Program-made: the position numbers and the translations under genes
Part shown: positions 2,614 through 63,828 of the stretch, in pieces
Numbering within the stretch: the stretch's first letter is position 1
Layout: every line of letters starts with the position of its first letter
The notes under the pieces: model-generated
What the model saw: only the letters and a program-made list of their open reading frames with translations
What the model was told of the DNA's origin: nothing
Databases searched by the model: none
Assembly (NCBI GenBank): GCA_024280885.1
Contig: JAJRPF010000055.1
Location: forward strand, 39,674-103,673
Length of the DNA stretch: 64,000 nucleotides
DNA from: Planctomycetota bacterium
GTDB lineage: Bacteria > Planctomycetota > JAJSAM01 > JAJVHW01
Direction of reading: 5' to 3'

Positions 2614-2642
2614 GCGCCCTCCGCTCCGGATGCGGGGGGCGC
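2614..2642. terminator. GC-rich hairpin (11-bp stem, 7-nt loop) between convergent genes; possible bidirectional terminator
   Basis: gcgccctccgc-tccggat-gcggggggcgc lies in the 128-bp gap between the + strand peptidase stop and the - strand FG-GAP stop; no U-tract, so weak. Confidence 0.3.
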
Positions 2643-2679
2643 CAACGCGTTCCCAGGGACGAATAGTCGCGAGCGCGCG

Positions 2680-8058: not shown

Positions 8059-8070
8059 CGGAGGGTCCGA

Positions 8071-33004: not shown

Positions 33005-33012
33005 GCCGACCC

Positions 33013-46717: not shown

Positions 46718-46720
46718 GTG

Positions 46721-47566
46721 TCACCGGCCTCGCCGACGACCGTGGCGTGAACCCAGGTGGCGAACAGTGGCGACGTCTTCCTCGCTCTTCAGCAGCGCGC
46801 CGAAGAGCGGCGGCATCCCGCCTTGGCTGGCCTTTTCGAGTGCCTCGTCGGGAACGCTCTCGGCCTCGAGCACCTTCAACCAGTCGAGGAGCTCCGATGT
46901 GCTCGGCCGCTTCTTGAGACCCGGCACTTCACGCAATCCGTAGAAGACGCGCATCGCGGCGTGGATGAGCTTTTCACGCAGGTCCGGATGGTGGACATCG
47001 ACGATCCTGCTCATCGTCTCGGCATCCGGGAATTTGATGTAGTGGAAGAAGCAGCGCCGGAGGAATGCGTCCGGCAGTTCCTTCTCGTTATTCGACGTGA
47101 TGATGACGAGTGGACGCTTGGTCGCCCGGATCGTCTCCTTCGTCTCGTAGACGAAGAACTCCATGCGATCGAGTTCGAGCAACAGGTCATTCGGGAATTC
47201 GATATCCGCCTTGTCGATCTCGTCGATCAGGAGGATCGCGCCGTCGTCCGAGTCGAATGCTTCCCAGAGCTTGCCACGCACGATGTAGTTGGAGATGTCG
47301 TTGACGCGCTCGTCGCCGAGTTGACCATCGCGGAGGCGAGCGACTGCGTCGTAGTCGTAGAGCCCCTGCTGCGCCTTGGTCGTGGACTTGACGTGCCACG
47401 TGACGAGCGGTTTCCCGAGCGAGCGGGCGATCTCCTCTGCCAGGACCGTCTTGCCTGTGCCCGGCTCGCCCTTGACGAGCAGCGGACGTTCGAGGGCGAT
47501 CGCAGCGTTGACGGCCACCATCAGATCCTCGGTGGCGATGTAGTTTTCGGTTCCCTGAAAGCGCAT
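46721..47566 (-). CDS. CoxD/MoxR-like AAA+ ATPase
   Basis: Walker A VKGEPGTGKT, Walker B ILLIDEIDKA, sensor LVIITSNNEKELPDAFLRR; ATG 47566 preceded by GGAGGA. Confidence 0.85.
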   Translation of the reverse strand: MRFQGTENYIATEDLMVAVNAAIALERPLLVKGEPGTGKTVLAEEIARSLGKPLVTWHVKSTTKAQQGLYDYDAVARLRDGQLGDERVNDISNYIVRGKLWEAFDSDDGAILLIDEIDKADIEFPNDLLLELDRMEFFVYETKETIRATKRPLVIITSNNEKELPDAFLRRCFFHYIKFPDAETMSRIVDVHHPDLREKLIHAAMRVFYGLREVPGLKKRPSTSELLDWLKVLEAESVPDEALEKASQGGMPPLFGALLKSEEDVATVRHLGSRHGRRRGR

Positions 47567-47683
47567 CTCGGTCCTCCGGCCCACGTGAGGCCTCGCGAGG
47601 GTAGGGCGAACCGGTCCCCTCCCGGGAGTTCCCTTGGCGCGCGCCTCGGTGAGCGCTACTTCGTGGGCGCCATCTCGTGGGCG

Positions 47684-48349
47684 CTACTCGTCGTCTTCGG
47701 ACGCGTCGGTGCCCGTATCCGAGGCGCCGCTGCCGTCGAGGTCCGGATCTTCGGTATCCGCTGCGTCGTCGTCGGGCGTTTCGAGGGCGTCGTTCAGCCT
47801 TGCCGCGAAGAGCGGCGAGTCCACATCGATGCGTTCGAGCAGGAACTCGCCATCGGCCTCGCGCAGCGTGATTGCGATCGTGGCGTCGCCGTTCGTGAAC
47901 GTCCCGTCGTAGACGAGAGAGTGCAGCTTGCCCGCACGCGATCCGACACGCGTATTCACGTCGTATGTGCGGATCCGCATGCTCTCGAGGTCGCCCATCA
48001 CGCCGGCGACGCGATCGTGTACCCCCTGCAGGCCGTCGCGGTCGGTCGTCGCCCGGTATTCCTCCGACGTGCGCTCCCACGCGTCATCGACCCGGTGCTC
48101 TGCGAGGAAGAGCGTGCAGTACTCCTCGGCAGCTGCGCCGCTCTCTCCGGCGAGATCCGCAACGATCTCGCGCAAGCCCTCCTCGAAGCCACCCGGATTA
48201 TCTGCAATCTCGCGCGCGCCGAGAAAGCCAATGACTCCGACGCCGCCACAGCATAGAAGACTCACCGCGCCGAGAACTCCGAGCACGATCCACAACGTGT
48301 TGGACTTACCTTCTCCGCCACCCATCGCCTCACCTCTCTGTCTTGCCAC
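47684..48349 (-). CDS. Hypothetical membrane-anchored protein with acidic C-terminal tail
   Basis: N-terminal TM helix LWIVLGVLGAVSLLCCGGVGVIGFL; C-terminus is D/E/S/G-rich; start may be the internal ATG at 48325. Confidence 0.5.
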   Translation of the reverse strand: MARQRGEAMGGGEGKSNTLWIVLGVLGAVSLLCCGGVGVIGFLGAREIADNPGGFEEGLREIVADLAGESGAAAEEYCTLFLAEHRVDDAWERTSEEYRATTDRDGLQGVHDRVAGVMGDLESMRIRTYDVNTRVGSRAGKLHSLVYDGTFTNGDATIAITLREADGEFLLERIDVDSPLFAARLNDALETPDDDAADTEDPDLDGSGASDTGTDASEDDE

Positions 48350-48465
48350 TGCTCTGTATTGCCACTGCCTCGCGCCGATCGCATCCGATGAAAGCTTCTA
48401 CCACGCCGACTCGGCAGGAAGCGATCTGCGGACCCTGAGGTAGCCTGCCCGGTCTTCCACTCCTC

Positions 48466-51400
48466 ATGCCTCTCCCCGCACACCTCGTCGCCATGTTCCC
48501 GAAGGACGCCCGCAAGAAGGGGCGCGCCTATGCGGCTGGCGGCGATGTGCGCATCGACGCCATGACCGAGACCACGGTTGCGGCCGATGTGCGCGACGAG
48601 CGCATGTACACCGTCGAGATCGACCTCTCGGAACTCGATGCTCCGCGGCTCAGTTGCACCTGCCCCGCGTGGCAGCGATGGGGCCCGTGCAAGCACCTGT
48701 GGGCAACTTTGCTGGAAGCGGATCGCGAGGGGCTGCACGTGCTGCAGCCAGAGGTCCCACTGCGACCGGCGCGCGTCGAAGAGGTGCCGCCAGCCGACTG
48801 GGAGGGGCGTCTCGACGCACTCGCAGAGACCTACGGGCGCCACGAGCCGGAGCCGATCGTCCGCCGCGCCTCCGAAGTCCTCTACGTGATCGACCGGACG
48901 CGGAGTCGGCGGTCGCACATCCTGGCCCTGACGGTTTTCGTTCGGCGGCGTCTGCGGAGCGGCAAATGGGGCATCTTGCGCGCATTCGGTCCGGCCTCTC
49001 GCGACGCACCGCCGGCGCTCGACGCCACCGATCGCGCGGTCCTCGCGGCGCTGCGTGGGGCCTCGGAATGGTCCCGCGAAGACGATGTCGATATGGATAC
49101 GTTCCTGCTCGACAACGATCAGATCGGCGTTTTCGTGCCGCTTCTCTGTTCGACCGGTCGTCTGCTTCTCGGGGAGCCTGCGCCCGAAGAGAAGTTGCAA
49201 CCGCTGACCTGGTCCGCGGAGCCGTCCTGGCGGTTGGAGACAGCGCTCGAGCGGACCGAAACGAGCGATCGCGTCCATCTCTCGGCGTCGCTGGTACGGG
49301 GCGACGTGAAGAAGCGCCCCGAGGAGCTCGATCTCTGCCTGCCGACCGGGCTGGTCATCTTCGAGCACGTCGCAACGCCGCTGCGCGTCGGCCACGCTGG
49401 CCCATGGCTCCAGGCGTTCCTCGACGAAGGGCCGATCGCGGCCGAGAAGGACGACGCCGAGGCCTTCGTCGAACGACTGCTCTCACTCCCGGCCGCGCCA
49501 CCACTCCGCGGCGATGCCGTCGAGTTGATCACCGGCGTTCGCCCGCAACCCCATCTCGACGCACGCGCAGCGGTCGAGGTCGGGCCGGGCTGGGTCGACT
49601 GTCGCGTCTGGGCGAATTACCACACGGATCGCGTGCGTCTCAGCGACCGATCGACGGCCGTGAACGATGCCGAAGGGCGCCGCCGCGTCGTGCGGGACAC
49701 CGAACTTGAGCGCGAGCTCAGCAAGAGTGTGCTGGAGCATGCCGAGGCCCTTCCGCCCCAGGGACCGGACTCCGATCTCTCGCTTCCGGCCACCACTCTC
49801 GTCACGTTGCTCCCCGCACTCCTCGCCGAGGGCTGGACGGTCGAGGCCTCCGGGAAGCGGTATCGTTCTGCAGGCAGCTTCAAGGCCAGCGTCGCGTCGG
49901 GAATCGACTGGTTCGGCGTACAGGGCGGCATCGAATTCGATGGTGTTCTCGCGCCGATGCCCGAGCTGTTGCGCTCGATCCGCGCCGGCAGTCGCACGGT
50001 CCGACTCGACGACGGTTCGCTCGGACTCCTTCCGGACGACGTCTTGCGAACCTGGGGATTGCTCTCCGCGATCGGGCGCGTCGAAGACGACGAGTTGCGC
50101 TTTGCGAAGCACCAGGGCTGGGTCATCGACGCGCTTCTGGCTTCGCGCGAGGGTGTGCAGGTCGATCCCGACTTCGAGGAGTATCGCCGTCGCCTCCAGG
50201 GCTTCGCGGGCATCGACTCCATCGACGAGCCGGAGACGTTCCAGGGCGAGTTGCGCACGTATCAGCGCGAAGGCCTCGCGTGGCTGCAGTTCCTGCGCGA
50301 GTTCGCCTGCGGCGGCTGTCTTGCGGACGACATGGGGCTCGGCAAGACCGTCCAGGTTCTGGCAATGCTCGAGGCGCGCCGCATCGACGATCAGGACCAC
50401 GGTCCGGCGCTGGTCGTTGCCCCGCGCTCCGTGGTCTTCAACTGGATCGACGAAGCCGCACGCTTCACTCCGGAGCTGAAGGTCCTCGACTACACGGGGC
50501 CGGGACGCCGCAGCCACATGGACGAGCTCATGTCGTACGACCTGATCGTCACGACGTACGGCGTGCTGCGTCGGGACATCGAGCAGTTGGTCGAGATCGA
50601 GTTCGACTACGCGATTCTCGACGAGTCACAAGCGGTGAAAAATGCCGCCACACAGGCGTCGAAGGCGGCTCGTGCGTTGCGGGCACGGCATCGCCTCGCG
50701 CTCTCTGGCACGCCGCTCGAGAATCACCTCACCGAGTTGTGGTCGCTCTTCGAGTTCCTGAACCCCGGGATGCTCGGTCGCAGCAGCGCCTTCAAGCGAT
50801 TGACGCGCAAAGGGGCTGGCGACGGGATCGACCGCGAGGGGCGTGCCCTACTCGCGCGCGCTCTGCGTCCGTTCCTCCTGCGACGCACGAAGGAACAGGT
50901 CGCGAAGGACTTGCCCGAGAAGACCGAGCAGACGTTGCATTGCGAGATGGGTCCGAAACAGCGTCGACTCTACCGGGAGCTCGCGACGCACTATCGCGAG
51001 TCACTCCTCGCGAACGGCGCCGAGGCGGCGATCCAAGGATCGCGCATGCATGTGCTTGAGGCACTGCTCCGCCTTCGTCAAGCGGCCTGTCATCCTGGCC
51101 TTCTCGATCCGGCGCGGCGCGGCGAGGAGAGCGCCAAGCTGGACGCTCTCCTGCCACTGCTCGAAGAGGTACTGGAGGAGGGGCACAAGGCGCTCGTCTT
51201 CAGCCAGTTCACGTCGATGTTGTCGATCGTACGCGATCGGTTGGACGCCGCGGAGATCACGTACGAGTACCTGGACGGCCAGACCCGCGACCGCAAGAAG
51301 CGCGTCGATCACTTCCAGAGCGACGAGTCTTGCGGTGTCTTCCTGATCAGCTTGCGCGCGGGCGGTCTTGGTCTCAATCTCACCGCCGCGGACTACGTGT

Positions 51401-51636
51401 TCATTCTCGATCCGTGGTGGAACCCGGCCGTCGAGGCGCAGGCGATCGACCGCACGTATCGCATCGGGCAGACACGCCACGTCATGGCGTACCGCATGGT
51501 CTGCAAGGACTCGGTCGAAGAGAAGATCCTCGATCTGCAGAGCAAGAAGCGCGCGCTCGCCGACGCGATCCTCACTGACGACAACGCGGTGCTGACCGAT
51601 CTCTCGCCGGGCGACCTCGAACTCCTGCTCTCGTAG
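48466..51636 (+). CDS. SWIM zinc-finger plus SNF2-family helicase
   Basis: N-terminal SWIM motif CTCPAWQRWGPCKHLW; SNF2_N motifs LRTYQREGLAWL, LADDMGLGKTVQ, DESQAVKN; helicase-C region FLISLRAGGLGLNLTAADYVFILDPWWNPAVEAQAIDRTYRIGQ. Confidence 0.9.
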   Translation: MPLPAHLVAMFPKDARKKGRAYAAGGDVRIDAMTETTVAADVRDERMYTVEIDLSELDAPRLSCTCPAWQRWGPCKHLWATLLEADREGLHVLQPEVPLRPARVEEVPPADWEGRLDALAETYGRHEPEPIVRRASEVLYVIDRTRSRRSHILALTVFVRRRLRSGKWGILRAFGPASRDAPPALDATDRAVLAALRGASEWSREDDVDMDTFLLDNDQIGVFVPLLCSTGRLLLGEPAPEEKLQPLTWSAEPSWRLETALERTETSDRVHLSASLVRGDVKKRPEELDLCLPTGLVIFEHVATPLRVGHAGPWLQAFLDEGPIAAEKDDAEAFVERLLSLPAAPPLRGDAVELITGVRPQPHLDARAAVEVGPGWVDCRVWANYHTDRVRLSDRSTAVNDAEGRRRVVRDTELERELSKSVLEHAEALPPQGPDSDLSLPATTLVTLLPALLAEGWTVEASGKRYRSAGSFKASVASGIDWFGVQGGIEFDGVLAPMPELLRSIRAGSRTVRLDDGSLGLLPDDVLRTWGLLSAIGRVEDDELRFAKHQGWVIDALLASREGVQVDPDFEEYRRRLQGFAGIDSIDEPETFQGELRTYQREGLAWLQFLREFACGGCLADDMGLGKTVQVLAMLEARRIDDQDHGPALVVAPRSVVFNWIDEAARFTPELKVLDYTGPGRRSHMDELMSYDLIVTTYGVLRRDIEQLVEIEFDYAILDESQAVKNAATQASKAARALRARHRLALSGTPLENHLTELWSLFEFLNPGMLGRSSAFKRLTRKGAGDGIDREGRALLARALRPFLLRRTKEQVAKDLPEKTEQTLHCEMGPKQRRLYRELATHYRESLLANGAEAAIQGSRMHVLEALLRLRQAACHPGLLDPARRGEESAKLDALLPLLEEVLEEGHKALVFSQFTSMLSIVRDRLDAAEITYEYLDGQTRDRKKRVDHFQSDESCGVFLISLRAGGLGLNLTAADYVFILDPWWNPAVEAQAIDRTYRIGQTRHVMAYRMVCKDSVEEKILDLQSKKRALADAILTDDNAVLTDLSPGDLELLLS

Positions 51637-51690
51637 CCGGTTCGCGACGCAGCGCACCCCGTCACTCGCACCCCGTTCATGCGCAGAGGG

Positions 51691-54600
51691 TCACTCCCAG
51701 TCGAAGCGCAGGATCGTGTACTTATCCGACGCTTCCTTGAGCAGGAACGACGTGCGCGAGAGTTGCTCGCGGTCGGTACCCGGATACCGGATCACCGTGG
51801 CGTAGCAGCGACTGCGGAGCGTTGTTCGAAGTCCGTCGGAGCCGTAGTAGTTCGCCTTGACGATGTACGCACCGGAGACGGCCCGGCCGAGGACGAACAT
51901 CTCGGGCCCATAGCCCTGCGTGACGTCGTCCGTGATCCCACCACCGATCGGGGAGCGGGGCACCCCGTAGTAACACTCGAAGCCCGTCGGGTCGATGACG
52001 TGGAGATCGACGTCCGTGCGATCGGTGTTCCACGTCAGCGTGACCACGAGTTCGGGGAGCGCGCGTAGGTACTTTGACGCGATGCGCTCCCGGGCGTCGT
52101 CAGCGATATTGGTCAACGTCGTCGTCACCTCTCCGCGCTCGATGCGGCGCAGCAGCCGCAAGTAGTCCATCGCGGCGATCAGTCGGAATGCACCGAAGCG
52201 CTCCGACCATTCGCCGCGTACTGCGATCTCGTACATCAGAAGAGCCGCATCGATCTTGTCGAGGCGCACCAGGCACTCGGCCATCGCCCGGTAGGTCTCC
52301 GGCTCATGCGGGCGCGCGTTCGCGACGCGTCGCAGCAGCCCGTAGGCCTGCGCGGGCCGGTCCCAATCCAGCATGGTGAACGCAACGTCGCGGAGCAGCG
52401 CGCTGGAACCCGGGTCCGCCTCGACGAGGGAGGAGAGGGCGCGGATGCCGTCGGAGACTCCCCGAACGGACGCGCGACCGAGCGCCTCGTCCTGCGCGGC
52501 GTCGTACGTGATTTTCTCGATGGTCAAGACCGAACGATAGGCGTCGGAGACGTCGTCCCAGGAGCGCGTGGCGCACGCCAGTGGGGCGGCATCGATGTCG
52601 AATGCCGAGGCGGGGAGTCGGACTGCGGCGCCGCGGACGGTGTCGAGATCCTCGAACGTGACTCCGGAGACGCGCTCCAGTCGATCGAGCCACGCCAGGA
52701 ACCGAGTGCGGGCGTCGGCGCGTCCTCGCTCTGCCGCGGCAGCGTGCTCGGCGACCACCGCCTCGACGGGACGCCGACGCACGTTCTCGGCTTCATCGGC
52801 CGGGACGATCTCGTAGCGGGCGTACGCCTCGTCGTCTTCGAGCATGAGCAACGAACAGGTCGTGCCCGTCACGCGATAGTGCAGCGCGTAGGAACGCGCA
52901 TCGTCGGAAGCGACGGGTTCGAGCGATTCCAGAGTGCCCGTCGCGATCTCGCCGTAGGTGCGCGCGGCGAGTGCAGATGGAGTGGGGGAGTCGAGTGGGA
53001 CGCGAACCGTCCGCGTCTGCCCGTCCTGCTCAAGCGTCAGGACGATCTCGTCTCCGGCCTGTGGACGACCTCTACCCGCGATGCGCAATCGCTGACCGGG
53101 GAAGAGTGCGAATGGACGTCCGGCGATCAGGATGTCGGAACAACCCGCCACCTCGACGCTGCGCAGCGTCCACGGTCGCGAGCGATGCGCGACAGCGGCG
53201 GCCCGAATCTCGTCGTCTGACGAGACGGAGAACACCGCGCCGCCGGTCTCCCTTGCCAGCGCTTCCAGGGCGCGTGTGTCGGAGCCGGCGAAGGGGCTCG
53301 CATACGCGAAGACGGGCGCCGCGAGGCCGCGGGCCACTGTCCGAGCCAACTCGACACCCCATGTCTCGGCGCCGTCGGAGAGCAGAAAGAGGTCTGCGTC
53401 GAGCCGTCCACTCGCCCACGCGGGCGCGCCGGCTTCTCGGAGCGCGGCCCCGAGATCCGTCGCCCCCTCGACGGCGAGACGACGGGCGTCCTCCACAAGA
53501 GCGGCGACCGTGGCTGGGTCGTTCTGCGCGAACTGCCCGCGCCACCACCACGTCTCGACGTTGAAGAAGAGAACAGCGAACTCCTGCAGCTCGGGCCGGT
53601 TGCGTTCGAGAGTTGCCCGCATCAATTCGATCCACGTGTTGACGCGATCTGGATTGGCAGACATCGACACGTCGAGCAGGAAGATCGCACGGCGGGACGG
53701 CGTCGCCTCCGTCGCTGGCACATCGGGCGTGATGACGCTGGCGAAATGTGGTCCGAGGGCAGGATCGTCGCCTGTGAGCGTCATGCCGTTCGACGCCGGG
53801 ATCACGACGCCGACGCGTTGACCTGCGACGTCGTCCCACGTGAATGTGGCGTGCGTCACGGTTATGTCGGCGGCGGTCACCGGAGACGCGTCGCTCGAGA
53901 GCGCATCGTCGATGCCGTCGATCGACTGCTGCACGACGACACGCGTCGCCTCGACCGATGAGGGAACGCTCAGTGCGAACTCAAGGCCCCCGGCGACCGG
54001 CGTCAGATCGACGTCGTAGGCGATCGTGATGCGCGACCGCTTTCCGGGCAGGAGGGGGAATACGCGCGTCGAGAAGATCCCGGCCCCGTTCCATTCCATC
54101 AGCGCGGGATCGACACTGTTCGCCGTCTCGGCGGCATAGGCCCTTTGCGCCGCCTCCCGGGGGACGATGCGCGCCTCGCGGAAGACGTCCTGCGTTCCGC
54201 GCGCGGCGCGCAGTGTGCTCGGTGAAAAGTCAAGCGCCGGGATCGCCTGCTGCGGCAGATCGATCAGGAGCGGCGCCTCTGCAACGGTGTCGCCGAAGGC
54301 CAAGTAGTGGACGGACGCCTCGTCCGGCAAGCGCAGCTTGAACGAGCCTTCGAGCGGCTGGTCGAACGTATTCGTGTATTGCAGATCGAGCACCACGCGC
54401 GCGCGAAAGCCGTCAATCCGCACCGTTGCCTGATACGCGTCGAGTGGCAGGAACTCGTCGTCGCCGATTGTGAGTTTGCACGCGCCTTCGGCCTGCTCGG
54501 AGCGTTTCCAGTTCACCACGCGACCGCCGCGCGCCGCGTTCGCACTCTCAGATTCGTATTCCTCTTCGCCTGCTCCGCCGAATGCTGCAACGCCCTCGGT

Positions 54601-54915
54601 GGCTCGCCCGAACATCGGACTTCGGTCGGGCTCCTCGGCCGACGCGGGGGCGCCGCCGGCGCTCGGTGGCGGAGGTGCTTCACCCTCCTCCGAGTCCTCG
54701 TCGGCCATGCCGAACGTCGGGTTACGGGAGGCCACCTCGGACATCGACGGGAACCAATCCGGCGCGAAGAACGTGTCGATCCATTTCTCTGGAGAGACGT
54801 CCGATGGCCGCGGTGGTTCCGGGGGAGGGGACGACGGCCCGTTGGTCGCCTGTGGCGCATCGCCACAGGCTGCGATTCCGACCAGCGCGATGATGAGAGC
54901 AACAAGACGACGCAC
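51691..54915 (-). CDS. Large secreted lipoprotein with VIT (vault inter-alpha-trypsin) domain, VWA domain and DUF2135-like C-terminus
   Basis: Lipoprotein signal LVALIIALVGIAAC; VIT-like region (QATVRIDGFRARVVLDLQYTN...), VWA core AIFLLDVSMS; C-terminal ~150 aa resemble DUF2135. Confidence 0.7.
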   Translation of the reverse strand: MRRLVALIIALVGIAACGDAPQATNGPSSPPPEPPRPSDVSPEKWIDTFFAPDWFPSMSEVASRNPTFGMADEDSEEGEAPPPPSAGGAPASAEEPDRSPMFGRATEGVAAFGGAGEEEYESESANAARGGRVVNWKRSEQAEGACKLTIGDDEFLPLDAYQATVRIDGFRARVVLDLQYTNTFDQPLEGSFKLRLPDEASVHYLAFGDTVAEAPLLIDLPQQAIPALDFSPSTLRAARGTQDVFREARIVPREAAQRAYAAETANSVDPALMEWNGAGIFSTRVFPLLPGKRSRITIAYDVDLTPVAGGLEFALSVPSSVEATRVVVQQSIDGIDDALSSDASPVTAADITVTHATFTWDDVAGQRVGVVIPASNGMTLTGDDPALGPHFASVITPDVPATEATPSRRAIFLLDVSMSANPDRVNTWIELMRATLERNRPELQEFAVLFFNVETWWWRGQFAQNDPATVAALVEDARRLAVEGATDLGAALREAGAPAWASGRLDADLFLLSDGAETWGVELARTVARGLAAPVFAYASPFAGSDTRALEALARETGGAVFSVSSDDEIRAAAVAHRSRPWTLRSVEVAGCSDILIAGRPFALFPGQRLRIAGRGRPQAGDEIVLTLEQDGQTRTVRVPLDSPTPSALAARTYGEIATGTLESLEPVASDDARSYALHYRVTGTTCSLLMLEDDEAYARYEIVPADEAENVRRRPVEAVVAEHAAAAERGRADARTRFLAWLDRLERVSGVTFEDLDTVRGAAVRLPASAFDIDAAPLACATRSWDDVSDAYRSVLTIEKITYDAAQDEALGRASVRGVSDGIRALSSLVEADPGSSALLRDVAFTMLDWDRPAQAYGLLRRVANARPHEPETYRAMAECLVRLDKIDAALLMYEIAVRGEWSERFGAFRLIAAMDYLRLLRRIERGEVTTTLTNIADDARERIASKYLRALPELVVTLTWNTDRTDVDLHVIDPTGFECYYGVPRSPIGGGITDDVTQGYGPEMFVLGRAVSGAYIVKANYYGSDGLRTTLRSRCYATVIRYPGTDREQLSRTSFLLKEASDKYTILRFDWE

Positions 54916-55240
54916 GGCAACCTCCCGATATTGCGCGACCGTCTACAGGATAGCGGCAGTCGGCGGTGCTCGCGTCACTCGCCGCCCACTCCTGGCCAGA
55001 ACACTCGTCCCACGTCGTGGAAGACAGCGGCTCGTTGCGTGTTCGAGGCCAGGGAGGATGTTCGTTCGACCGACTCGTCCCGCGCGCGGAGATGCGCGCG
55101 AGCCGCAGTGACGGACGTGACAGATCGAGAATCGGCGAATGTGGGAAAGCGACTCACGTCACAGGGCATACACCAGAGCGCTGTAGACCGTGGCGGGCGA
55201 GAGTCCGCAACGAACGACCACGACCAAGAGGGGAAGATCC

Positions 55241-56059
55241 ATGAAGCCGACTATCGGAGCAGTTGCTGTCGCACTCATCGTTCTGACAGCGAACGTCGCC
55301 AGCGCCGGAACCCTCTATGCGGTTCGAGGCTCCGACAACGAGTTGGTCAGCATCGATACCGATACGTTCGAGTTGACCGATGTCGGTGCACTTGGCGTTG
55401 ACTTCAGTCTCGGGGGACTCGCGTACGATCCGGACGCGGACGTGATGTACATGGTCCAGGGGAGCGCGGGCAAGGGGCTCTATTCGGTCAACCGGAGCAC
55501 CGGCGCGGCGGCTCTTGTCGGCGTGCATGGTATCTCGACGCTCTTCTCCCTGGGCTTCGACTCAACGAACGGCGTTCTCTACGGTGGAGATCTCGTAGCT
55601 GAAGGGCTCTACTCGCTCTCGACAGGAAACGGCTCGGCCACGCTCGTCGGCATTACGTCCCTCAGTGTACTTGGCGGCCTGGCCTACGACTCGAAGCGGG
55701 ATCAACTGATCGGCATGGACGACGGAGCAGGCGACCTCTACAGCATCGATCGCACGACTGCAGTGCCCACGCTCCTCTTCGACGGCACCTTCGTGAACGA
55801 CAGTGGCTTGGCGTACGATGCCGACAAGGACCTGTACTGGGACCTGGACTTCGACGGCAACCTCCACTCGTACGATCCCAATGCCGGGTTCGTACAGACA
55901 TTGGAAGCGAACTTCGGTTCGGCTGGGCGGTGGGACGGGCTCACCTACGCGCCCTTCATAGCCGTCGTCCCGCTCCCTGGCGCCGCCTGGATGGGTCTGA
56001 GCGTGCTCGGCGCGCTCTTCGCCCTTGAGCGCAGAAAGAAGCGACTCCGCACCGCGTAA
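55241..56059 (+). CDS. Secreted beta-propeller-like protein with PEP-CTERM-like C-terminal sorting signal
   Basis: Signal peptide MKPTIGAVAVALIVLTANVASA; repeated LY(S/A)xD... blades; C-terminus VPLPGAAWMGLSVLGALFALERRKKR fits the motif / TM / basic-tail architecture of PEP-CTERM; ATG 55241 preceded by GAGGGGAAG. Confidence 0.6.
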   Translation: MKPTIGAVAVALIVLTANVASAGTLYAVRGSDNELVSIDTDTFELTDVGALGVDFSLGGLAYDPDADVMYMVQGSAGKGLYSVNRSTGAAALVGVHGISTLFSLGFDSTNGVLYGGDLVAEGLYSLSTGNGSATLVGITSLSVLGGLAYDSKRDQLIGMDDGAGDLYSIDRTTAVPTLLFDGTFVNDSGLAYDADKDLYWDLDFDGNLHSYDPNAGFVQTLEANFGSAGRWDGLTYAPFIAVVPLPGAAWMGLSVLGALFALERRKKRLRTA

Positions 56060-56396: not shown

Positions 56397-57875
56397 ATGC
56401 AACTCAGTTCTGTCATCAGCTCGGTCATCACTCCGGTCATCAGCGTGTCGGCTTGTGTTGGCGCGCTCCTTGCCGTATCCGCGGGGCCCGCGCACGCGGA
56501 GTGGATCAACCGGACCGAAAACGTGCCCGTCGCGCGCCTCGTTACGAACCTCGAAGCACGGATTGCGAAGAACCCGCGCGATGCTCAGGCGCACTACGTT
56601 CTGGCGCGGGTTCACAGCATGGCGTGGGCGCACGAGACGGAGGTTGTCGAGATCGAGCCGCCCGCGACAGACGCTGCGCTACCGACCTTCGCACCGTGGC
56701 AGAGTGTTCAGCGCGCACGGGAGGCGCAGAAGGGGCTCGCCGTCTCGGCGCCCTCCGAGACGGCGAAGACGCATTTCCATCGTTCCGTCTCACACTACCG
56801 GACCGCGGCGAAGCTGGACGGGAAGGCGTCGATCCACTTCATGGGGCTCGGGTACATGCTGCAGGACGGTGCGCGTTACGTGCAGTGGTTGCGCACGCCC
56901 GACGGCTCCGAGACGAAGACAAATCTCTCCGACGAGGAGATCGCGCGACACCAGGCGCTGGTCGCACGCCTCACGGCCGAGACGAAGGGCGATCGCGAGG
57001 TCGCGCGACGCAAACTGATCGCGGCGTTGCCCGCTGCCGCAACGGTTCTACGCTGGCACCTGCGGACCGAGGATGCCGGTGAGCGCGCGGCAGTCATCGA
57101 GTTGCTGCGTTACCACTGGCTCGACCTGGCGGCCGCGGCATACCGCAGGTCCCACACAATCGCACTGCCGAGCGATCTGGCGCAGGAGGCCCACGCCGAC
57201 GCGGGCGACAAGCCGCTGAGTCAGGAGTCCGGAGCGGCCCTCCTGGCAATCCTGCGGACGCGCGAGATGTCGAAGTCGATCGAGCAGGAGATCGCAACAC
57301 TCGAAGTAGTGCTGAAGAAGCTGAAGGCGCTCCCGCGCTGGGAGACGCCGATCGTCTTTCCGCTCTCCGGACAGCGACCACTCGTCGATCTGATCCATCC
57401 GACACGGCGCGTGGACTTCGATCTTGACGGTGACGGCGTCGCCGGGCGCTGGCCCTGGGTTCGGAGCGACGTCGGCATCCTGGTCTGGGACCCCGATGGC
57501 GACGGTATCGTCTCGTCGGGACGCGACCTCTTTGGCGGACGCACATGGTGGATCCGCTGGCCGGATGGATATGCGCCTCTCGCCGCCCTCGACGACAACT
57601 CCGATGGACACCTCGCCGGTGACGAGCTTCGCGGTCTCGGCGTCTGGGTCGATCGCAACGGCAATGCGATCAGTGATGCTGGCGAAGTGCGACCGGTCAC
57701 CGAGCTCCTCATCGCGGCGATCAGCGTGCGCAGCGACCACGAGCACGATGGGGTCCCCGCGACTGTTCGCGGGATCACATTCGCGGACGGTGCGACAGTG
57801 CCAACCTACGACTGGACGCCCGAGCGCGCAGTATCGGCGACAGAGAAGTCGCTACGAAAGCGTCTTGCTGAGTAG
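56397..57875 (+). CDS. Hypothetical secreted protein with C-terminal Asp-rich (calcium-binding-like) repeats
   Basis: Signal peptide ...GALLAVSAGPAHA; helical N-terminal half; C-terminal DxDGDG motifs (DLDGDGVAG, DPDGDGIVS, DDNSDGHLAG); ATG 56397 preceded by GGGAGA. Confidence 0.55.
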   Translation: MQLSSVISSVITPVISVSACVGALLAVSAGPAHAEWINRTENVPVARLVTNLEARIAKNPRDAQAHYVLARVHSMAWAHETEVVEIEPPATDAALPTFAPWQSVQRAREAQKGLAVSAPSETAKTHFHRSVSHYRTAAKLDGKASIHFMGLGYMLQDGARYVQWLRTPDGSETKTNLSDEEIARHQALVARLTAETKGDREVARRKLIAALPAAATVLRWHLRTEDAGERAAVIELLRYHWLDLAAAAYRRSHTIALPSDLAQEAHADAGDKPLSQESGAALLAILRTREMSKSIEQEIATLEVVLKKLKALPRWETPIVFPLSGQRPLVDLIHPTRRVDFDLDGDGVAGRWPWVRSDVGILVWDPDGDGIVSSGRDLFGGRTWWIRWPDGYAPLAALDDNSDGHLAGDELRGLGVWVDRNGNAISDAGEVRPVTELLIAAISVRSDHEHDGVPATVRGITFADGATVPTYDWTPERAVSATEKSLRKRLAE

Positions 57876-59291
57876 TTCCTTCATCTCCGGTACGCCGCCC
57901 TGGAAGAGCAGGTAGCCGTCGTGCGGTTCGCCGTCGGTGATCTCGCCGGCGACCGGCGTTGACATCAACTCGCGGACGCGGTCCGGATCGTCGGGATGCA
58001 GCCCGAGTGCCCACGACAGCTTGATGTACGCGGCTTCCGGCAGCATGTTCGCAAGGGGGATGACGCCGAGTTGGAGGATCTCGCGTCCGGTCTCGTAGAC
58101 GTTCATCTGCACGAAACCCCAAAGGGTCTGCAGCGTCATGTAGACCTGCACTCCGGCGTCGCGTGCGCGTTCGAGTGCCGGATAGACGAGCCGGTTGACA
58201 TGCCCGAGTCCGGTTCCCGCGATGATGATCCCGCGGTACCCCTTCTCGACCATCGCATCGACGATGTCAGCCTGCATGTTCGGGTAGTAGTAGAGGATCG
58301 TGACGCGATCGCAGAAGGCGGCTTGGATGGTGACTTCGCGATCGTCGCGGCGCGGTTTCCAGGTCTCGTGGATGTGCGTGAGTCCTTCGTCGTTCACCAT
58401 CGCGAGTGGCACGTCGCCGAGTGTGCGGAAGGTGCTCCGGTACGAGCTGTGCATCTTGCGCACGCGGGTGCCGCGATGCAGCAGGTTGTAGCTGTGCGAT
58501 GTGGGCCCGAGCATGCAGACCATGACCTCGGCGATCGGGCCGTGAGCCGCAGCGTAGGACGCGGCGATGAGATTGCGCGCGGCATCGGACGACGGACGAT
58601 CCGAAGAACGCTGACTGCCGACCATCACGATCGGTACGGGTGGGTCCTGCACCATGTACGAGAGCGCCGCCGCCGTGTGATGCATCGTGTCCGTGCCGTG
58701 CCCGACCATCACGCCGTCGCAGCCTTCGCGGATGGCCTTGCCGATCCGTTCGGCAAGGACGAGGTATTCCTCGCGCCCCATATTCTCCGAGAAGACGCCG
58801 AAGAGCTTCTCGGTCTCGAGATTGCAGACGTCGGCGAGTTCCGGTACGGAGCCGTAGAGCTCGCCGGGGGTGAACGCCGGGATCACGGCTCCCGTGCGAT
58901 AGTCGAGACGCGATGCGATGGTGCCGCCCGTCCCAAACAGCACGACGTTCGGCTTCGAGTCGTCGCGCGGGAACTCCTTCTCCGGGACCTTGTAGATCGC
59001 CTTGCGATAGCCCGTCTTCGTCAACTCGGTGATCGTGTCGTAGCGCAGCCCGACGTTGTAGCCACTCTCGAGTTTCAGGACGAGATGCTCGGCGTCGGAG
59101 GTCTCCGAGCGCGGGAGTACGAGACCCTCGAAGCGTCCGGATGAAGTTACCGCGACGACCGTGGACCAGACCGTCACGTGCGACTGTTTCAGAAGGCCGA
59201 GAGCGGGCTCACGATAACCCTTGTAGTCCTCCGCGTCGGCCACCTCGTCCGCGGCCCCAGCTCCGTTCGGCCCAACGCTCTTCGTATTCAT
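57852..59291 (-). CDS. gatD: GatD-like subunit of archaeal-type Glu-tRNA(Gln) amidotransferase (asparaginase-fold glutaminase)
   Basis: N-terminal GatD-specific domain followed by an asparaginase domain with VVLFGTGGTIAS and ...GHGTDTM... motifs; ATG 59291 overlaps the gatE stop (ATGA). Confidence 0.75.
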   Translation of the reverse strand: MNTKSVGPNGAGAADEVADAEDYKGYREPALGLLKQSHVTVWSTVVAVTSSGRFEGLVLPRSETSDAEHLVLKLESGYNVGLRYDTITELTKTGYRKAIYKVPEKEFPRDDSKPNVVLFGTGGTIASRLDYRTGAVIPAFTPGELYGSVPELADVCNLETEKLFGVFSENMGREEYLVLAERIGKAIREGCDGVMVGHGTDTMHHTAAALSYMVQDPPVPIVMVGSQRSSDRPSSDAARNLIAASYAAAHGPIAEVMVCMLGPTSHSYNLLHRGTRVRKMHSSYRSTFRTLGDVPLAMVNDEGLTHIHETWKPRRDDREVTIQAAFCDRVTILYYYPNMQADIVDAMVEKGYRGIIIAGTGLGHVNRLVYPALERARDAGVQVYMTLQTLWGFVQMNVYETGREILQLGVIPLANMLPEAAYIKLSWALGLHPDDPDRVRELMSTPVAGEITDGEPHDGYLLFQGGVPEMKELLSKTLS

Positions 59292-61354
59292 GACGCGCTC
59301 CCCTCTGTCGCGGCCGCCAGCGCTTCGTTTACGGCGGTGCGCACGTCGTCGATCGTCGCGCGTCCGAGCACGTACGGCATCACCTCGCCGAGGGCACGGC
59401 GCAGGAGTGCATCTTCGTCGAGGCGCTCCGCGCCATGGAGCGTCCGCACTTCGTGAAGGCGCTCGCCCATGAGGTCGTCGTCGTCATCGCCGCCGCGAAA
59501 GATCGCGAGGACGATGTCCGCGTCACGCTCGGGCTCGCGAAGGAGATCCTCGAACGCCGCCTCGAATGCCTCGGGCAGGATCACGCCCTCGTCCACGTCG
59601 CGCACGAGCGGGGCCAGACGCTCGGCATCGGGCAACCCGACAAGGACGCCCGCGCGGCGCAGATAGGGGATGCGCTTCTCCAGCGCAAATGCCAGCCGCC
59701 GCGCCGTCACGAGCGTGGCGGGTGCCAGGTCATCGTAGAGTTGTGACCACTCCGACATCGCCAGCCGGCGGGCAAGAGCGAGTGGCAGCCCTGCCGCGAC
59801 GTAGCGATCCTCGCGGACCCAGGGGCAGTCCTTGACCGCGTGTTCGATGCGATCAACCCATGCGTCGAGGATCTTGATCGGCGGCGTATCCGTGTCGGGA
59901 TACATGCGCTCGGGACCCGGGAGGATGCGTTCGAGACCGGTCGTGCAATCGCCGTACATCTGGCGCGTCTCGGAGGGGACACCGATGAGCGCGTCCTGCG
60001 CGCGAGTGAGAAGCTCGCGGCACGCGGTCGCCACGTCGTCTTCCGGGCCCCAGACCAGAATGACCGCGTCGCCCTCCGCGGCGCTAACCGCCGCTCGGAC
60101 AGCGGACCAGATCGATTCCTCGACACCGACGCTCTCGTCGGTATGCGTCATGAACGGTTGTGCCGTCAGGCATGCGATCACACGCAGGCGCTCGCTGAAC
60201 TCCTGCGCGAAGACGACACCGGGCTGCGTGCGCACGGTCAACAGTCCACCGAAGTGCGGAAGCCGCACGGCGGCAACCGTGTCACCGAATGCGCGCGCGT
60301 TCTGGAGCGGTTCGTATGCGGAGTCCGCCACCGCAACTCCGACGAGTGCGATCTGTGACGAGTTCCAAGGCGTGGCTTCGTCCTCCGGCACGACCATCGC
60401 GTGCGTGCAACCGCGCGTTCGCAGCGTCTCGCGGATGCGCAGCAACTCGAGCTGTCGGAAGGCCTCGATGTGCACGAGCTTCGGCAACACCTTGTGCTGC
60501 GGAACCCCCTTGATCTCGATGCGGCGACTCCCGGCGATGGAGACGTTCACATCCTGGCGCGCCGCACCGCTCCCGCGTCGCACCTTGCCACTTGCGCGTG
60601 CCACCGCCGCGATCAGACGCCCGCCCGACTCGACGTCGCGCGGGGTCATCAGCTCCGGTTCCGTGACGGTCTCGATGAGCGGCATTCCGAGGCGATCGGT
60701 GCGGAACACGATCTTGTGGCCGATGTCCGAGATCTCGCGGCACGAGTCCTCTTCCAGCGTGAGCTGACGCAGGTTGAGCATCGCGTCGGCGCCCAGCGAG
60801 CTCTCGCGAAACGGGATCGCACCACCGACCGCGATCATCCCGGTGCGCTGGAACCCGGTGGGGATGGAGCCATCGAGGTACTGCTTGCGCATCACCTGCA
60901 GTTCGGAGACGAGTGCCATGCCGAACATCGAGGCGATCTCGAGCGACGACTTCACGGCTTCCTCGTCGATCGGAAACGGCGGCGTGTCGTCGATCTCGTA
61001 TGTGCACACACACGCCCGCGCGACGCGATAGACGATCTGCTTCTCGGTCTTGAACTCCATCAGCGCGCAGCCGTCGTAGCGCCCGAGCTCCGAGAGCGTC
61101 GGCCGCATGTGGCGCAGGATCTCGGCGTCCACGCGATCAGTGAACACGCCGGCGGGACAGCGACAGAAGAGCTTGCGGCGCGTGTCGAGTTGTTGATGCA
61201 CTTCGAGGCCGCACATGAAGCCGATTTCGTCGTACTCCGCGTCGGTCATGTCACCGAAATCACGCCACGGGAAGTGGAGCGCCGGATCGGTTCGAGGATT
61301 CAGATCGATGGGAGCGGGAGGGGCGGCTTCCCGCTTGAAATGGCGCCGCGTCAC
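59288..61354 (-). CDS. gatE: GatE-like subunit of archaeal-type Glu-tRNA(Gln) amidotransferase
   Basis: GatB/GatE catalytic motif CGLEVHQQLDTRRKLFCRCP near the N-terminus, RMYPDTDTPP motif, C-terminal helical (YqeY/GatB-like) tail; GTG 61354 overlaps the glnS stop (alternative ATG 61249). Confidence 0.75.
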   Translation of the reverse strand: MTRRHFKREAAPPAPIDLNPRTDPALHFPWRDFGDMTDAEYDEIGFMCGLEVHQQLDTRRKLFCRCPAGVFTDRVDAEILRHMRPTLSELGRYDGCALMEFKTEKQIVYRVARACVCTYEIDDTPPFPIDEEAVKSSLEIASMFGMALVSELQVMRKQYLDGSIPTGFQRTGMIAVGGAIPFRESSLGADAMLNLRQLTLEEDSCREISDIGHKIVFRTDRLGMPLIETVTEPELMTPRDVESGGRLIAAVARASGKVRRGSGAARQDVNVSIAGSRRIEIKGVPQHKVLPKLVHIEAFRQLELLRIRETLRTRGCTHAMVVPEDEATPWNSSQIALVGVAVADSAYEPLQNARAFGDTVAAVRLPHFGGLLTVRTQPGVVFAQEFSERLRVIACLTAQPFMTHTDESVGVEESIWSAVRAAVSAAEGDAVILVWGPEDDVATACRELLTRAQDALIGVPSETRQMYGDCTTGLERILPGPERMYPDTDTPPIKILDAWVDRIEHAVKDCPWVREDRYVAAGLPLALARRLAMSEWSQLYDDLAPATLVTARRLAFALEKRIPYLRRAGVLVGLPDAERLAPLVRDVDEGVILPEAFEAAFEDLLREPERDADIVLAIFRGGDDDDDLMGERLHEVRTLHGAERLDEDALLRRALGEVMPYVLGRATIDDVRTAVNEALAAATEGSAS

Positions 61355-63828
61355 TTCTCTTGCACCCCTTCGACGCCACCGAGTTTTTCGGTGAGCAACG
61401 TGTTCACGAGACCGGGATTGGCCTTGCCCTGCGATGCGCGCATGACCTGGCCCATGAAGAAGCCGAGCAGGCCGGTCTTTCCGCCACGATAGAGCGCGAC
61501 CTTGTCTGCATTCGCGTCGATGACGGAGTCAACGATCGCGCCAAGAGCGTCGGTGTCGGAGACCTGTCGCAATCCACGGCGCTCCACGATGGCAGCGGGT
61601 TCGCCTCCGTCCGCGATCATCTCGGAGAAGACATCCTTGCCGGCCGCGGCCGAGATCTCGCCCGCTTCGACGAGTGCGACCAACGCCCCGAACGCGGCGC
61701 CGCTGAAGGGGAGTTCGCCGAGCGGACGCTCCTTCAGCTCGCGGAGCAGCTCGTTGATTGCCCACTTGGCGACGGCGGGACCGTCGTCGTGTACTGCGAT
61801 CGCTGCGTCGACGAAGGCAACCAAGTTGGCATCGCCCGTGAGTCGGTCGGAATCCTCTTCCGTGAGACGGAGATCAGCCGTGTAGCGCGCGAACGCAGCG
61901 GCGAGTACAGGGTTCGCGGCGCGCGCGCGCACACGTTCGTCGGCGATCGTGGTCTGTGGGCCGCTCACCTGCGGCGCGCGCTGCTTCGTGGCGCGTGGCG
62001 CCGCCCGGGCGACGGCGCCGGTCTTCTTGCCCCACGTATCGCGCAACGAGACGACGCGGTTGAAGACGAGCGCGCTCGGAGCGCTGTCTTCGCTGTCGGG
62101 GATGAAGTATCCGACGCGTTCGAATTGGTAGCGACTCTGCGGTCCGTCGGCTGCGACCGAGTCCTCGACGCGGGCGCCCTGCACGACAGCGAGCGAGTCC
62201 GGGTTGAGGTCGAGCTTGAAGTCGCGCTCGGCTCCGGGGGCGGCCGCGGCGAAGAGACGATCGTAGAGGCGTACCTCACAGGCAACCGAGTGACTGGCCG
62301 AGACCCAGTGGATCGTGCCCTTCACCTTGCGTCCATCGACCTGGCCGAAACGCGTGGCCGGGTCGTGCGAGCAGAGCAAGCGTACGATGTTGCCCTCGCC
62401 GTCCTTCTCGACCTCGTTGACACGGATCACATACGCGTGACGCAGGCGCACCTCGCCGCCTGGCGCCAACCGATGCCAGCCCTTGGGCGGGTCCTCGCTG
62501 AAGTCACCGCGGTCGATGTAGATGCGGCGCTCGAAGAAGATCGTGCGCGACGCCTCCTTCGGAATGTCGTGCGGCCAGTAGGGCGCCTCGATCTCCTCGG
62601 AGTCCTCCGGGTGCCACGTCGTGATCACGACCTCGAGCGGATCGAGCACGCACATCACGCGCGGGCTTCGCGGGCTCAGGTCCTCGCGCAGGCAATAGTC
62701 GAATTTGCCGATGTCCACCAGGCTGTTGGTCTTCGAGATGCCGACCAGGTCGATGAATGCGCGGATTGCTTCGGCGGTCACTCCGCGACGTCGCAATCCG
62801 GCGATGGTCGGCATGCGGGGATCGTCCCATCCGCTGACGTGGCCGTCGTTCACCAGTTCCGCGAGCTTGCGCTTGCTGGTCACCGTGTATTCGATGTTCA
62901 GGCGTGCGAATTCGTACTGATGGGGACGCTTCGCAAGTGCCTCACCTTCGAGCGTGTTGTCGAGCACCCAGTCGTAGATCCCGCGCCGCGTCTCGAATTC
63001 GAGCGAGCAGAGCGAGTGCGTGACTTCCTCGTACGCGTCTTCCAGGCAGTGGGCGAAGTCGTACATCGGGTAGATGCACCACGTGTCCCCGGTCCGATGA
63101 TGCGTCACGTGACGGATGCGATAGAGCAGCGGGTCACGCAACAGCATGTCCGCGGCACTCATGTCGATCTTCGCGCGAAGAACGCGGGAGCCGTCTTCGA
63201 ACTCGCCCGCCTTCATGCGTCCGAGGAGGTCGAGGTTCTCCTCGGGCGAGCGTTCGCGGAAAGGGCTGTTGACACCCGGTTCGGTGATCGTCCCACGACT
63301 GGTAGCGAGGTCTGCCTTGGACTGGTCGTCGACGTACGCGAGTCCCTTGCGGACAAGGGTCTGCGCGCTCGCGTAGATGAAGTCGAAGTAGTCGGAAGCG
63401 TGCCGGACGGGAGGTTCCCACGCGCAGCCGAGCCACGCGATGTCGGCGGAGATCGCCTCGACGAAGCGCGCGTCCTCGGTGAGCGGATTCGTATCGTCGA
63501 AGCGCAATCGAAAGAGCCCATCGTAGGCCGTCGCGAGCCCGTGGTTGACGCCGATGGCCTTGGCGTGCCCGATATGGAGGAAGCCATTCGGTTCCGGCGG
63601 GAAACGGGTCACCACACGCTTGCAGCGGCCGGCGGCAAGGTCCGCATCGACGATATCGGTCAGGAAGTTCGTCTTCCTGGCGACCTCGTCGGCATCTCGC
63701 TCTGCGTCCACACTACCGTCGTCTTCGTCCAAGTCCCTGCCTCCGGCGTTCGAGGCCGGCTCCGGGGGAATCCCGCCGTCGGCGCTCGCCAAGACGGCGA
63801 AGATAGCGCGCCGGACCCGAGGCTCCAA
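61351..63828 (-). CDS. glnS: Glutaminyl-tRNA synthetase fused to a C-terminal GatB/YqeY-like domain
   Basis: Class-I motifs FPPEPNGFLHIGHAKA (HIGH) and VTSKRKL (KMSKS-like); GlnRS-specific segments; ~230-aa C-terminal extension with the YqeY/GatB-C fold pattern (as in Deinococcus-type GlnRS); ~65-aa N-terminal extension may reflect a later true start. Confidence 0.85.
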   Translation of the reverse strand: MEPRVRRAIFAVLASADGGIPPEPASNAGGRDLDEDDGSVDAERDADEVARKTNFLTDIVDADLAAGRCKRVVTRFPPEPNGFLHIGHAKAIGVNHGLATAYDGLFRLRFDDTNPLTEDARFVEAISADIAWLGCAWEPPVRHASDYFDFIYASAQTLVRKGLAYVDDQSKADLATSRGTITEPGVNSPFRERSPEENLDLLGRMKAGEFEDGSRVLRAKIDMSAADMLLRDPLLYRIRHVTHHRTGDTWCIYPMYDFAHCLEDAYEEVTHSLCSLEFETRRGIYDWVLDNTLEGEALAKRPHQYEFARLNIEYTVTSKRKLAELVNDGHVSGWDDPRMPTIAGLRRRGVTAEAIRAFIDLVGISKTNSLVDIGKFDYCLREDLSPRSPRVMCVLDPLEVVITTWHPEDSEEIEAPYWPHDIPKEASRTIFFERRIYIDRGDFSEDPPKGWHRLAPGGEVRLRHAYVIRVNEVEKDGEGNIVRLLCSHDPATRFGQVDGRKVKGTIHWVSASHSVACEVRLYDRLFAAAAPGAERDFKLDLNPDSLAVVQGARVEDSVAADGPQSRYQFERVGYFIPDSEDSAPSALVFNRVVSLRDTWGKKTGAVARAAPRATKQRAPQVSGPQTTIADERVRARAANPVLAAAFARYTADLRLTEEDSDRLTGDANLVAFVDAAIAVHDDGPAVAKWAINELLRELKERPLGELPFSGAAFGALVALVEAGEISAAAGKDVFSEMIADGGEPAAIVERRGLRQVSDTDALGAIVDSVIDANADKVALYRGGKTGLLGFFMGQVMRASQGKANPGLVNTLLTEKLGGVEGVQEK

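Follow-up and report, generated by a model that had tools for sequence, protein, structure and literature searches.

Archaeal GatDE is an amidotransferase of well-established chemistry: ammonia is released from an amide donor, and glutamate bound to tRNA is activated with ATP and amidated. In the solved enzymes of M. thermautotrophicus (2D6F) and Pyrococcus abyssi (1ZQ1), GatD consists of a GatD_N domain and a type I asparaginase, and GatE of a cradle domain, an insertion resembling aspartyl-tRNA synthetase (AspRS) and a helical tail. Here we report the same two subunits from a 64,000-nucleotide stretch of a Planctomycetota bacterium contig (JAJRPF010000055.1; the whole stretch is referred to as the window, and positions are those of the window unless another locus is named), in which gatE and gatD are translationally coupled to the gene of a glutaminyl-tRNA synthetase (GlnRS) with a C-terminal YqeY domain. 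Reviews published from 2009 to 2022 regard GatDE as exclusive to archaea (PMC2811023, PMC8007984, PMC9499178), and the view of the initial annotation that GatDE is an archaeal system whose pairing with a GlnRS is unusual agrees with this standard. No description of bacterial GatDE was found in the searched literature; the NCBI pipeline already labels these bacterial proteins as GatE and GatD.

Several described systems resemble parts of the locus. The archaeal glutamine transamidosome joins a GlxRS-family synthetase to GatDE, with ND-GluRS, a homologue of GlnRS, bound by the amidotransferase (PMC2943598). At the level of its genes, the window likewise pairs a synthetase of this family with GatDE, but the synthetase is a glutamine-specific GlnRS and not ND-GluRS. 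The GlnRS of D. radiodurans (2HZ7) belongs to the same family (NF011291) and has the same YqeY fusion architecture, its YqeY domain increasing the affinity for tRNAGln (PMC1865053, PMC3927822). However, the amidotransferase of Deinococcus is GatCAB and serves asparagine, whereas the window glnS is coupled to gatE-gatD. Finally, direct and tRNA-dependent routes coexist in Thermus, Deinococcus, Bdellovibrio and Pseudomonas, which possess GlnRS and/or AsnRS together with GatCAB (PMC4206432, PMC3927822). In these bacteria the amidotransferase is heterotrimeric and the indirect route leads to asparagine in the tested cases, while the window combines GatDE with genomic links to glutamine. Cells that combine a direct synthetase and an amidotransferase are therefore familiar where the latter is GatCAB, in most cases acting for asparagine (PMC4206432); no such combination is known with GatDE.

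The glnS-gatE-gatD operon

The initial annotation had described positions 57852-63828 as three minus-strand genes overlapping by 4 bp each. Both the list of open reading frames (ORFs) and the reading of the reverse strand agree with this description and give ORFs of 825, 688 and 479 codons in the order glnS, gatE and gatD. The features of the operon are as follows.

57852..59291, minus strand: gatD, asparaginase-type glutaminase subunit of GatDE, 479 aa (TIGR02153; GatD_N together with the N and C domains of asparaginase)
59031..59156, minus strand: GatD-specific N-terminal domain of GatD (PF18195, 45.2 bits)
59288..59291, minus strand: ATGA overlap of the gatD start ATG with the gatE stop TGA, with GAGGGGAG upstream (sequence)
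59288..61354, minus strand: gatE, kinase/amidotransferase subunit of GatDE, 688 aa (TIGR00134, NF003107, structure matches)
60020..60292, minus strand: AspRS-like (GAD) insertion of GatE, absent from GatB (PF02938, residues 355-445, E 6.6e-5, 23.5 bits against a cutoff of 23.4)
61351..61354, minus strand: GTGA overlap of the gatE start GTG with the glnS stop TGA (sequence; 4-bp overlap also in loci L002, L086 and L087)
61351..63732, minus strand: glnS, glutamine--tRNA ligase with C-terminal YqeY domain, 793 aa from TTG 63732 (NF011291, TIGR00440, deposited protein P0127)
61381..61815, minus strand: YqeY/GatB-type C-terminal domain of GlnRS (PF02637, 144.8 bits; aligns to the C-terminal domain of D. 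radiodurans 2hz7)
62095..62667, minus strand: anticodon-binding domains of GlnRS (PF03950, PF20974)
62677..63615, minus strand: class I catalytic domain of GlnRS, with HIGH motif LHIGHAK and KMSKS-equivalent VTSKR (PF00749, 306.8 bits, residues 72-384 of the long ORF)
63740..63744, minus strand: Shine-Dalgarno sequence GGAGG, preceding the probable start codon of glnS (TTG 63732-63730) by 7 nt (sequence; the start agrees with P0127 and with homologue lengths)

Since 4-bp overlaps are frequent within operons, they are statistically unremarkable alone. Both are nonetheless retained in three other assemblies, and the complete arrangement glnS(YqeY)-gatE-gatD is found in four independent assemblies, namely the window and the loci L002, L086 and L087, whose GatE proteins are 67%, 60% and 58% identical to that of the window, respectively. 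In two further relatives, GlnRS and GatE are each encoded on contigs equal in size. Searches with Rfam (gathering thresholds) and scans for promoters and terminators around the operon returned nothing informative.

The assignment to a true GatE and a true GatD, as opposed to paralogues of GatB and of ordinary asparaginases, was borne out by both subunits. GatD reached 477.5 bits against TIGR02153 (cutoff 324), contains the GatD_N domain and matched the archaeal subunits 1zq1_A (E 3e-112) and 2d6f_A (E 1.6e-110) in phmmer searches. GatE reached 397.4 bits against TIGR00134 (cutoff 319.55) and combines the GatB/E catalytic domain PF02934 with the GAD insertion PF02938. Its identity to the solved archaeal structures 1zq1_C and 2d6f_C is 32-34% (Foldseek identities; phmmer also matches), and to archaeal GatE in general about 30-38%. 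The AlphaFold (AF2) model of GatE, with a predicted local distance difference test score (pLDDT) of 76, retrieved 1zq1_C and 2d6f as best Foldseek matches (TM-score 0.68-0.70), followed by GatB and then, via the insertion domain, by AspRS structures; residues 490-688 are confidently helical in this model. An assignment of the gatE product to GatB was rejected, as the best GatB model, with 117.4 bits, fell far short of its cutoff of 338, the protein has the insertion domain and its partner is GatD rather than GatA.

The catalytic positions to which the initial annotation had drawn attention are kept in both subunits. Within the 65 alignment columns that are at least 95% conserved among 83 archaeal representatives, the window GatE retains 61, including H53, E201/E202, E228, R266, D268, N270, S272, E280 and K282, and its putative active site appears intact. 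By alignment, H53, E201/E202 and E228 correspond to H15, E157/158 and E184 of the M. thermautotrophicus protein, and we take these His/Glu/Glu positions to be the metal site of GatB/GatE. GatD, aligned with 2d6f_A and 1zq1_A, keeps the asparaginase residues Thr, Thr-Asp and Lys in the motifs TGGT (121-124; nucleophile T124) and HGTDT (198-202; T200/D201) and at K279. The TGGT and Lys motifs are present in all 42 full-length bacterial GatD homologues, and HGTDT in 38 of them.

For the synthetase, the predicted Deinococcus-type YqeY domain at the C-terminus was confirmed by PF02637 and by a score of 1092.5 bits against the GlnRS/YqeY fusion family NF011291 (cutoff 681), which places the protein within this family; TIGR00440 gave 671 bits. 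A claimed N-terminal extension of about 65 aa, however, proved to be a start-codon artefact. The longest ORF spans 61351..63828, but TTG 63828 is merely its first possible start codon, and the identical deposited protein P0127 (793 aa) begins at TTG 63732, downstream of the GGAGG sequence. Counted from there, GlnRS has about 12 N-terminal residues more than that of E. coli, and its relatives, of 770-800 aa, likewise have a short acidic N-terminus. The fusion itself occurs in Chloroflexi, Myxococcales, Longimicrobium, Planctomycetes and Acidobacteriota, a far wider range than first described. An origin of the YqeY domain from the tail of GatE was considered and rejected, as the domain is far closer to GatB-type YqeY (E 1e-41 against GatB models, E 5e-10 against GatE models) and bears a marginal likeness to the GatE tail.

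The core of the window GlnRS is about 58% identical to the P. aeruginosa and E. coli enzymes, and the protein can be aligned end to end with both of these and with the D. radiodurans GlnRS. The residues that form the glutamine site in E. coli (R30, D66, Y211, H215, S227, C229, F233 and Q255) all recur unchanged in the alignment to 1gsg_P. C229 and Q255 are positions that have been altered in GlnRS engineering to shift specificity towards glutamate, and they distinguish GlnRS from GluRS. As every glutamine-pocket residue of the E. coli enzyme is retained, we regard the window GlnRS, judged by its sequence, as a genuine glutamine-specific enzyme of the YqeY-fusion family, and a mischarging GluRS-like enzyme was rejected on the same grounds. 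With their predicted active sites intact, all three proteins, GlnRS, GatE and GatD, look active.

A bacterial clade of GatDE

A search with GatE returned at least 8000 proteins, of which the best 120 are 54-100% identical, and all named ones among these are bacterial: Myxococcota (including the cultured Paraliomyxa miuraensis), Acidobacteriota, Planctomycetota and Gemmatimonadota. The nearest named relatives of GatE and GlnRS, at 54-60% identity, belong to Myxococcota, Acidobacteriota, Planctomycetota, Chloroflexi and Gemmatimonadota. In a set of 1.84 billion representatives, GatE matched 555 clusters (50% identity; E up to 1e-30), and a pattern scan of metagenome contigs gave at least 80 gatE loci, of which 80 were examined. 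Among these 80, gatD follows gatE wherever the downstream sequence suffices, and low-GC loci have neighbours with a type IX secretion system (T9SS) tail; the one such locus that was searched (L054) matches Ignavibacterium/Ignavibacteriales. The window GatD is 64% identical to the Ignavibacterium GatD and 50% to that of Heimdallarchaeota, and across phyla bacterial GatD proteins are 61-80% identical to it. A scan of genome contigs with the GatE protein had a Bathyarchaeota locus as its sole return; this was discarded, being in reality an archaeal GatB beside a tRNA-Asn.

In a neighbour-joining tree of 137 sequences rooted on an archaeal GatB, all bacterial-type GatE proteins form one clade of 51 members (bootstrap 98/100) that spans Myxococcota, Gemmatimonadota, Acidobacteriota, Planctomycetota and Ignavibacteria. 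Of the 65 archaeal-conserved columns, 56 are also conserved across this clade, at a level of 90% or higher. The deepest member lies among lnt, murC, murD, mraZ and rsmH, and Lnt, MurC/D, MraZ, OmpA and T9SS-tail genes adjoin GatE relatives. The nearest archaeal proteins are those of Asgard archaea, Heimdallarchaeota first and then Hod-, Thor- and Odinarchaeota, with a support of 49/100 for the grouping; the bacterial clade may be either sister to all archaea or nested within Asgard. The Asgard GatE proteins most like the bacterial clade are P0286/P0405 (TET29438.1) and that of the Heimdallarchaeota locus L095.

The locus thus differs from archaeal GatDE in several respects. Its host is bacterial, the identity to archaeal GatE and GatD is low (about 50% for GatD), and the bacterial sequences form a monophyletic clade of their own. 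While gatD and gatE are divergently transcribed in the Heimdallarchaeota locus L095, gatE and gatD are co-directional and overlap in the bacterial pair. In addition, GatDE is coupled here to GlnRS, and the tRNA identity elements it reads must differ.

The initial annotation had also offered a horizontal transfer from archaea as an explanation, and this did not hold in the sense of a recent event. The GC content at third codon positions (GC3) of the three operon genes is 0.82-0.83, typical for the window (overall GC 66%), the operon is kept in relatives down to 58% GatE identity, and the well-supported clade covers several phyla. A further possibility raised at the outset, that GatE and GatD homologues are widespread in close relatives as ordinary GatB and asparaginase paralogues, turned out to be half right: the homologues are widespread in bacteria, but as orthologues of GatDE. 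We therefore consider the operon, on phylogenetic and compositional evidence, to be vertically inherited in a GatDE clade of bacteria rather than newly acquired from archaea.

A mis-assembly that joined archaeal sequence to a bacterial contig, or the decaying relic of a recent archaeal transfer, is hardly credible. The literature does annotate the family as archaeal and the NF003107 score of GatE lies just under the cutoff. However, the flanking genes, which comprise a BatA/DUF58/MoxR/VWA operon, ABC-2 transporters, TldD/PmbA, a SWIM-SNF2 helicase and a PEP-CTERM-like protein, are bacterial, gatE overlaps the gene of a GlnRS, an enzyme that archaea lack (PMC9499178), the GC3 is that of the window, and the operon recurs in independent assemblies with intact ORFs and conserved catalytic residues. 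The same neighbours and the same overlap speak against the suggestion that the contig itself is archaeal. These observations contradict a restriction of GatDE to Archaea, as do the named relatives, which are all bacterial.

A probable dual supply of Gln-tRNAGln

On balance, we think it probable that the operon provides Gln-tRNAGln by two co-expressed routes, one direct and the other indirect, with GatDE amidating Glu-tRNAGln. GlnRS would charge tRNAGln directly with glutamine. GatD would hydrolyse an amide donor, glutamine or asparagine, and release ammonia, and GatE would use ATP to phosphorylate the side-chain carboxyl of tRNA-bound glutamate before amidating it. The Glu-tRNAGln might be supplied by a GluRS whose discrimination against tRNAGln is incomplete, a source that we infer along with the division of labour between the two routes. 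The indirect route may serve to clear mischarged Glu-tRNAGln, to supply one tRNAGln isoacceptor, or to provide Gln-tRNAGln during a shortage of free glutamine. Bdellovibrio, Thermus and Deinococcus are bacterial precedents for the combination of a direct synthetase and an amidotransferase (PMC4206432).

Glu-tRNAGln appears the most likely substrate because the active sites are conserved and the informative neighbours of bacterial gatED are all linked to glutamine or glutamate. Beyond the four glnS-gatE-gatD loci, Paraliomyxa miuraensis (L003) has the order gatE-gatD-(small ORF)-glnS. Its GlnRS (L003 13779-15503) has the YqeY-fusion model as best match (870 bits, positions 7-560) and is without a YqeY domain, which suggests a secondary loss of the appended domain. 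A gene of a true type I glutamine synthetase (GS; glnA) adjoins gatE in 7 loci. In a Gemmatimonadetes metagenome-assembled genome (MAG; L005 13467-14867) and an Acidobacteriota MAG (L090 13464-14867), a divergent GS-family gene overlaps the gatD stop; the encoded proteins of 466-467 aa score 152-155 bits against the GlnA model (cutoff 429), and gatE-gatD-GS-like represents a further conserved type of gatED operon in bacteria. In locus L014, a bacterial-type gltX encoding GluRS (1257-2651, minus strand; 455 bits against 290) is divergently adjacent to gatE at 2871, and L017 has another gltX at a distance of about 9 kb from gatE. Gln-synt_C is the commonest family in a count of 108 immediate gatED neighbours, and AsnRS, AspRS, AsnB and GatABC are absent from the 25 commonest families. 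When the window and 60 related loci were scanned for tRNAs, no tRNAGln, tRNAGlu or tRNAAsn was detected beside bacterial gatED.

A number of observations weigh against this reading. An intact GlnRS renders the indirect route formally redundant, and in the 80 metagenome loci glnS was never found nearby, its adjacency being confined to a few lineages. The window itself carries no tRNA, no other translation gene and no Rfam family according to tRNA and Rfam scans. GatE scored 455.8 against NF003107, marginally below the cutoff of 456, the alignment covering positions 2-626 of the 630 in the model, and certain positions that are invariant in archaea are altered throughout the bacterial clade, as in the change of Q240 to P. 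The YqeY-like tail, the part of GatE that reads the tRNA D-loop, is detected by the Pfam model PF02637 in many bacterial GatE relatives but not in the window GatE, whose tail is too diverged for this model and resembles the YqeY motif at the C-terminus marginally (E 0.048). Moreover, archaeal GatDE reads A1:U72 and the D-loop of archaeal tRNAGln (PMC9499178), whereas bacterial tRNAGln has U1:A72. As bacterial tRNAGln is devoid of these archaeal features, the specificity of bacterial GatDE must have changed.

The initial annotation had also envisaged a recruitment of GatDE to another tRNA-dependent amidation. In one such alternative, bacterial GatDE would replace GatCAB in asparagine decoding and amidate Asp-tRNAAsn, alone or in addition to Glu-tRNAGln, with glutamine left to GlnRS. 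In bacteria, tRNAAsn and tRNAGln have U1:A72 in common, the pair that bacterial amidotransferases read (PMC1635274), so that a GatDE re-tuned to bacterial tRNA could be dual-specific; in GlnRS-bearing bacteria a retained amidotransferase normally serves asparagine (PMC4206432), and the diverged GatE tail would also fit. We nevertheless consider this alternative unlikely, since the suggestive neighbours (GlnRS, GlnA, GS-like protein and GluRS) are all related to glutamine or glutamate and none to asparagine or aspartate, and since archaeal GatDE is specific for Glu-tRNAGln. A lead in the same direction comes from Ignavibacterium album, which is listed with GlnRS and gatCAB (PMC3927822), while Ignavibacterium spp. 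carry GatDE; if GlnRS, gatCAB and GatDE do occur together in one Ignavibacterium genome, GatDE is no simple replacement of GatCAB there.

It is somewhat less likely still that GlnRS and GatDE form one physical, transamidosome-like complex, in which GlnRS would act mainly as the partner that binds and hands over tRNAGln and not as a parallel route. The binding of ND-GluRS by archaeal GatDE (PMC2943598) provides a precedent, the translational coupling of three genes is kept in four lineages, and GlnRS bears an additional tRNA-binding domain in YqeY. However, most bacterial gatED loci are without an adjacent glnS, the adjacent GlnRS of Paraliomyxa has no YqeY domain, and a GlnRS with a fully intact active site need not depend on GatDE. 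A bolder version, to which we attach similarly little weight, would have a eukaryote-derived GlnRS take the place of archaeal ND-GluRS in the complex, each particle being capable of either chemistry, with GatDE an ancient, Asgard-related part of bacterial translation.

A recruitment of GatDE outside ordinary translation, providing specialised tRNA- or carrier-bound glutamate for secondary metabolism or the cell envelope, seems improbable. Redundancy with GlnRS, and possibly with GatCAB, does invite a new role, to which the clade-specific substitutions and the diverged GatE tail could be ascribed. There is, however, no conserved linkage to biosynthetic clusters. The L087 operon lies among core housekeeping genes, following alaS-rpmF-plsX-fabD-fabG-acpP-fabF, the neighbours elsewhere are GS, GlnRS and GluRS, and the identity of GatD across phyla fits a core function. 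A link to cell-wall amidation of the MurT/GatD-like type, suggested by the Mur ligase genes that L003 and L088 carry in the vicinity of gatE, was dropped, as these genes encode ordinary MurE and MurC.

In the operon as a whole, the individual enzymes are familiar, and the novelty lies in an archaeal-type amidotransferase clade that is native to bacteria and stands in an operon with GlnRS. This contradicts the textbook distribution of GatDE as an archaeal signature, on which the argument was built that archaeal tRNAGln co-evolved with GatDE and thereby blocked the acquisition of GlnRS. As an apparently intact GatDE coexists with GlnRS in bacteria, coupled to it, the two systems are not mutually exclusive. 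The locus offers a system for asking why cells keep two routes to Gln-tRNAGln, how GatDE reads bacterial-type tRNA, and whether GatDE is older than the split of bacteria and archaea or was exchanged with Asgard-like archaea. Cultured carriers are at hand with Paraliomyxa miuraensis and, on present evidence, Ignavibacterium spp. For genome annotation, rules that confine GatD and GatE to Archaea misjudge such genomes, as does the conclusion from a missing gatCAB that no indirect glutamine pathway exists.

Surrounding genes

Downstream of the operon, a 492-aa ORF (56397-57875, plus strand) converges on gatD, the 3' ends overlapping by 24 bp (57852-57875). It has no Pfam match, a signal-peptide-like N-terminus and Asp-rich DxDxDG-like repeats. 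A DUF4394 protein (55190-56059, plus strand) ends in VPLPGAAWMGLSVLGALFALERRKKR, which has the look of a PEP-CTERM-type sorting signal. Within 45542-54915, a pair of VWA_CoxE and AAA_5 ATPase genes faces a SWIM-zinc-finger SNF2 helicase of 1056 aa, which is followed by a 1074-aa VIT/VWA/TPR protein. As the VIT protein and the SNF2 helicase also adjoin gatD in the relative L002, this neighbourhood is conserved in the lineage. In the relative L087 (1-7572), even acyl carrier protein (ACP), the ribosomal protein L32 and FabF each stand alone in their clusters at 90% identity.

Farther away in the window, a Bat-type 'aerotolerance' operon (5321-11981, minus strand) encodes BatA/VWA, DUF58 and MoxR (AAA_3) proteins and a 963-aa protein with VWA and GATase1-like domains. 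At 30998-38571 (plus strand), an SPFH/Band7 protein of 668 aa is followed by a protein of 1852 aa, a giant ATPase pair; the domains of the larger protein are DUF3686 ('ATPase involved in DNA repair', 677 bits), DUF7902 and AAA.

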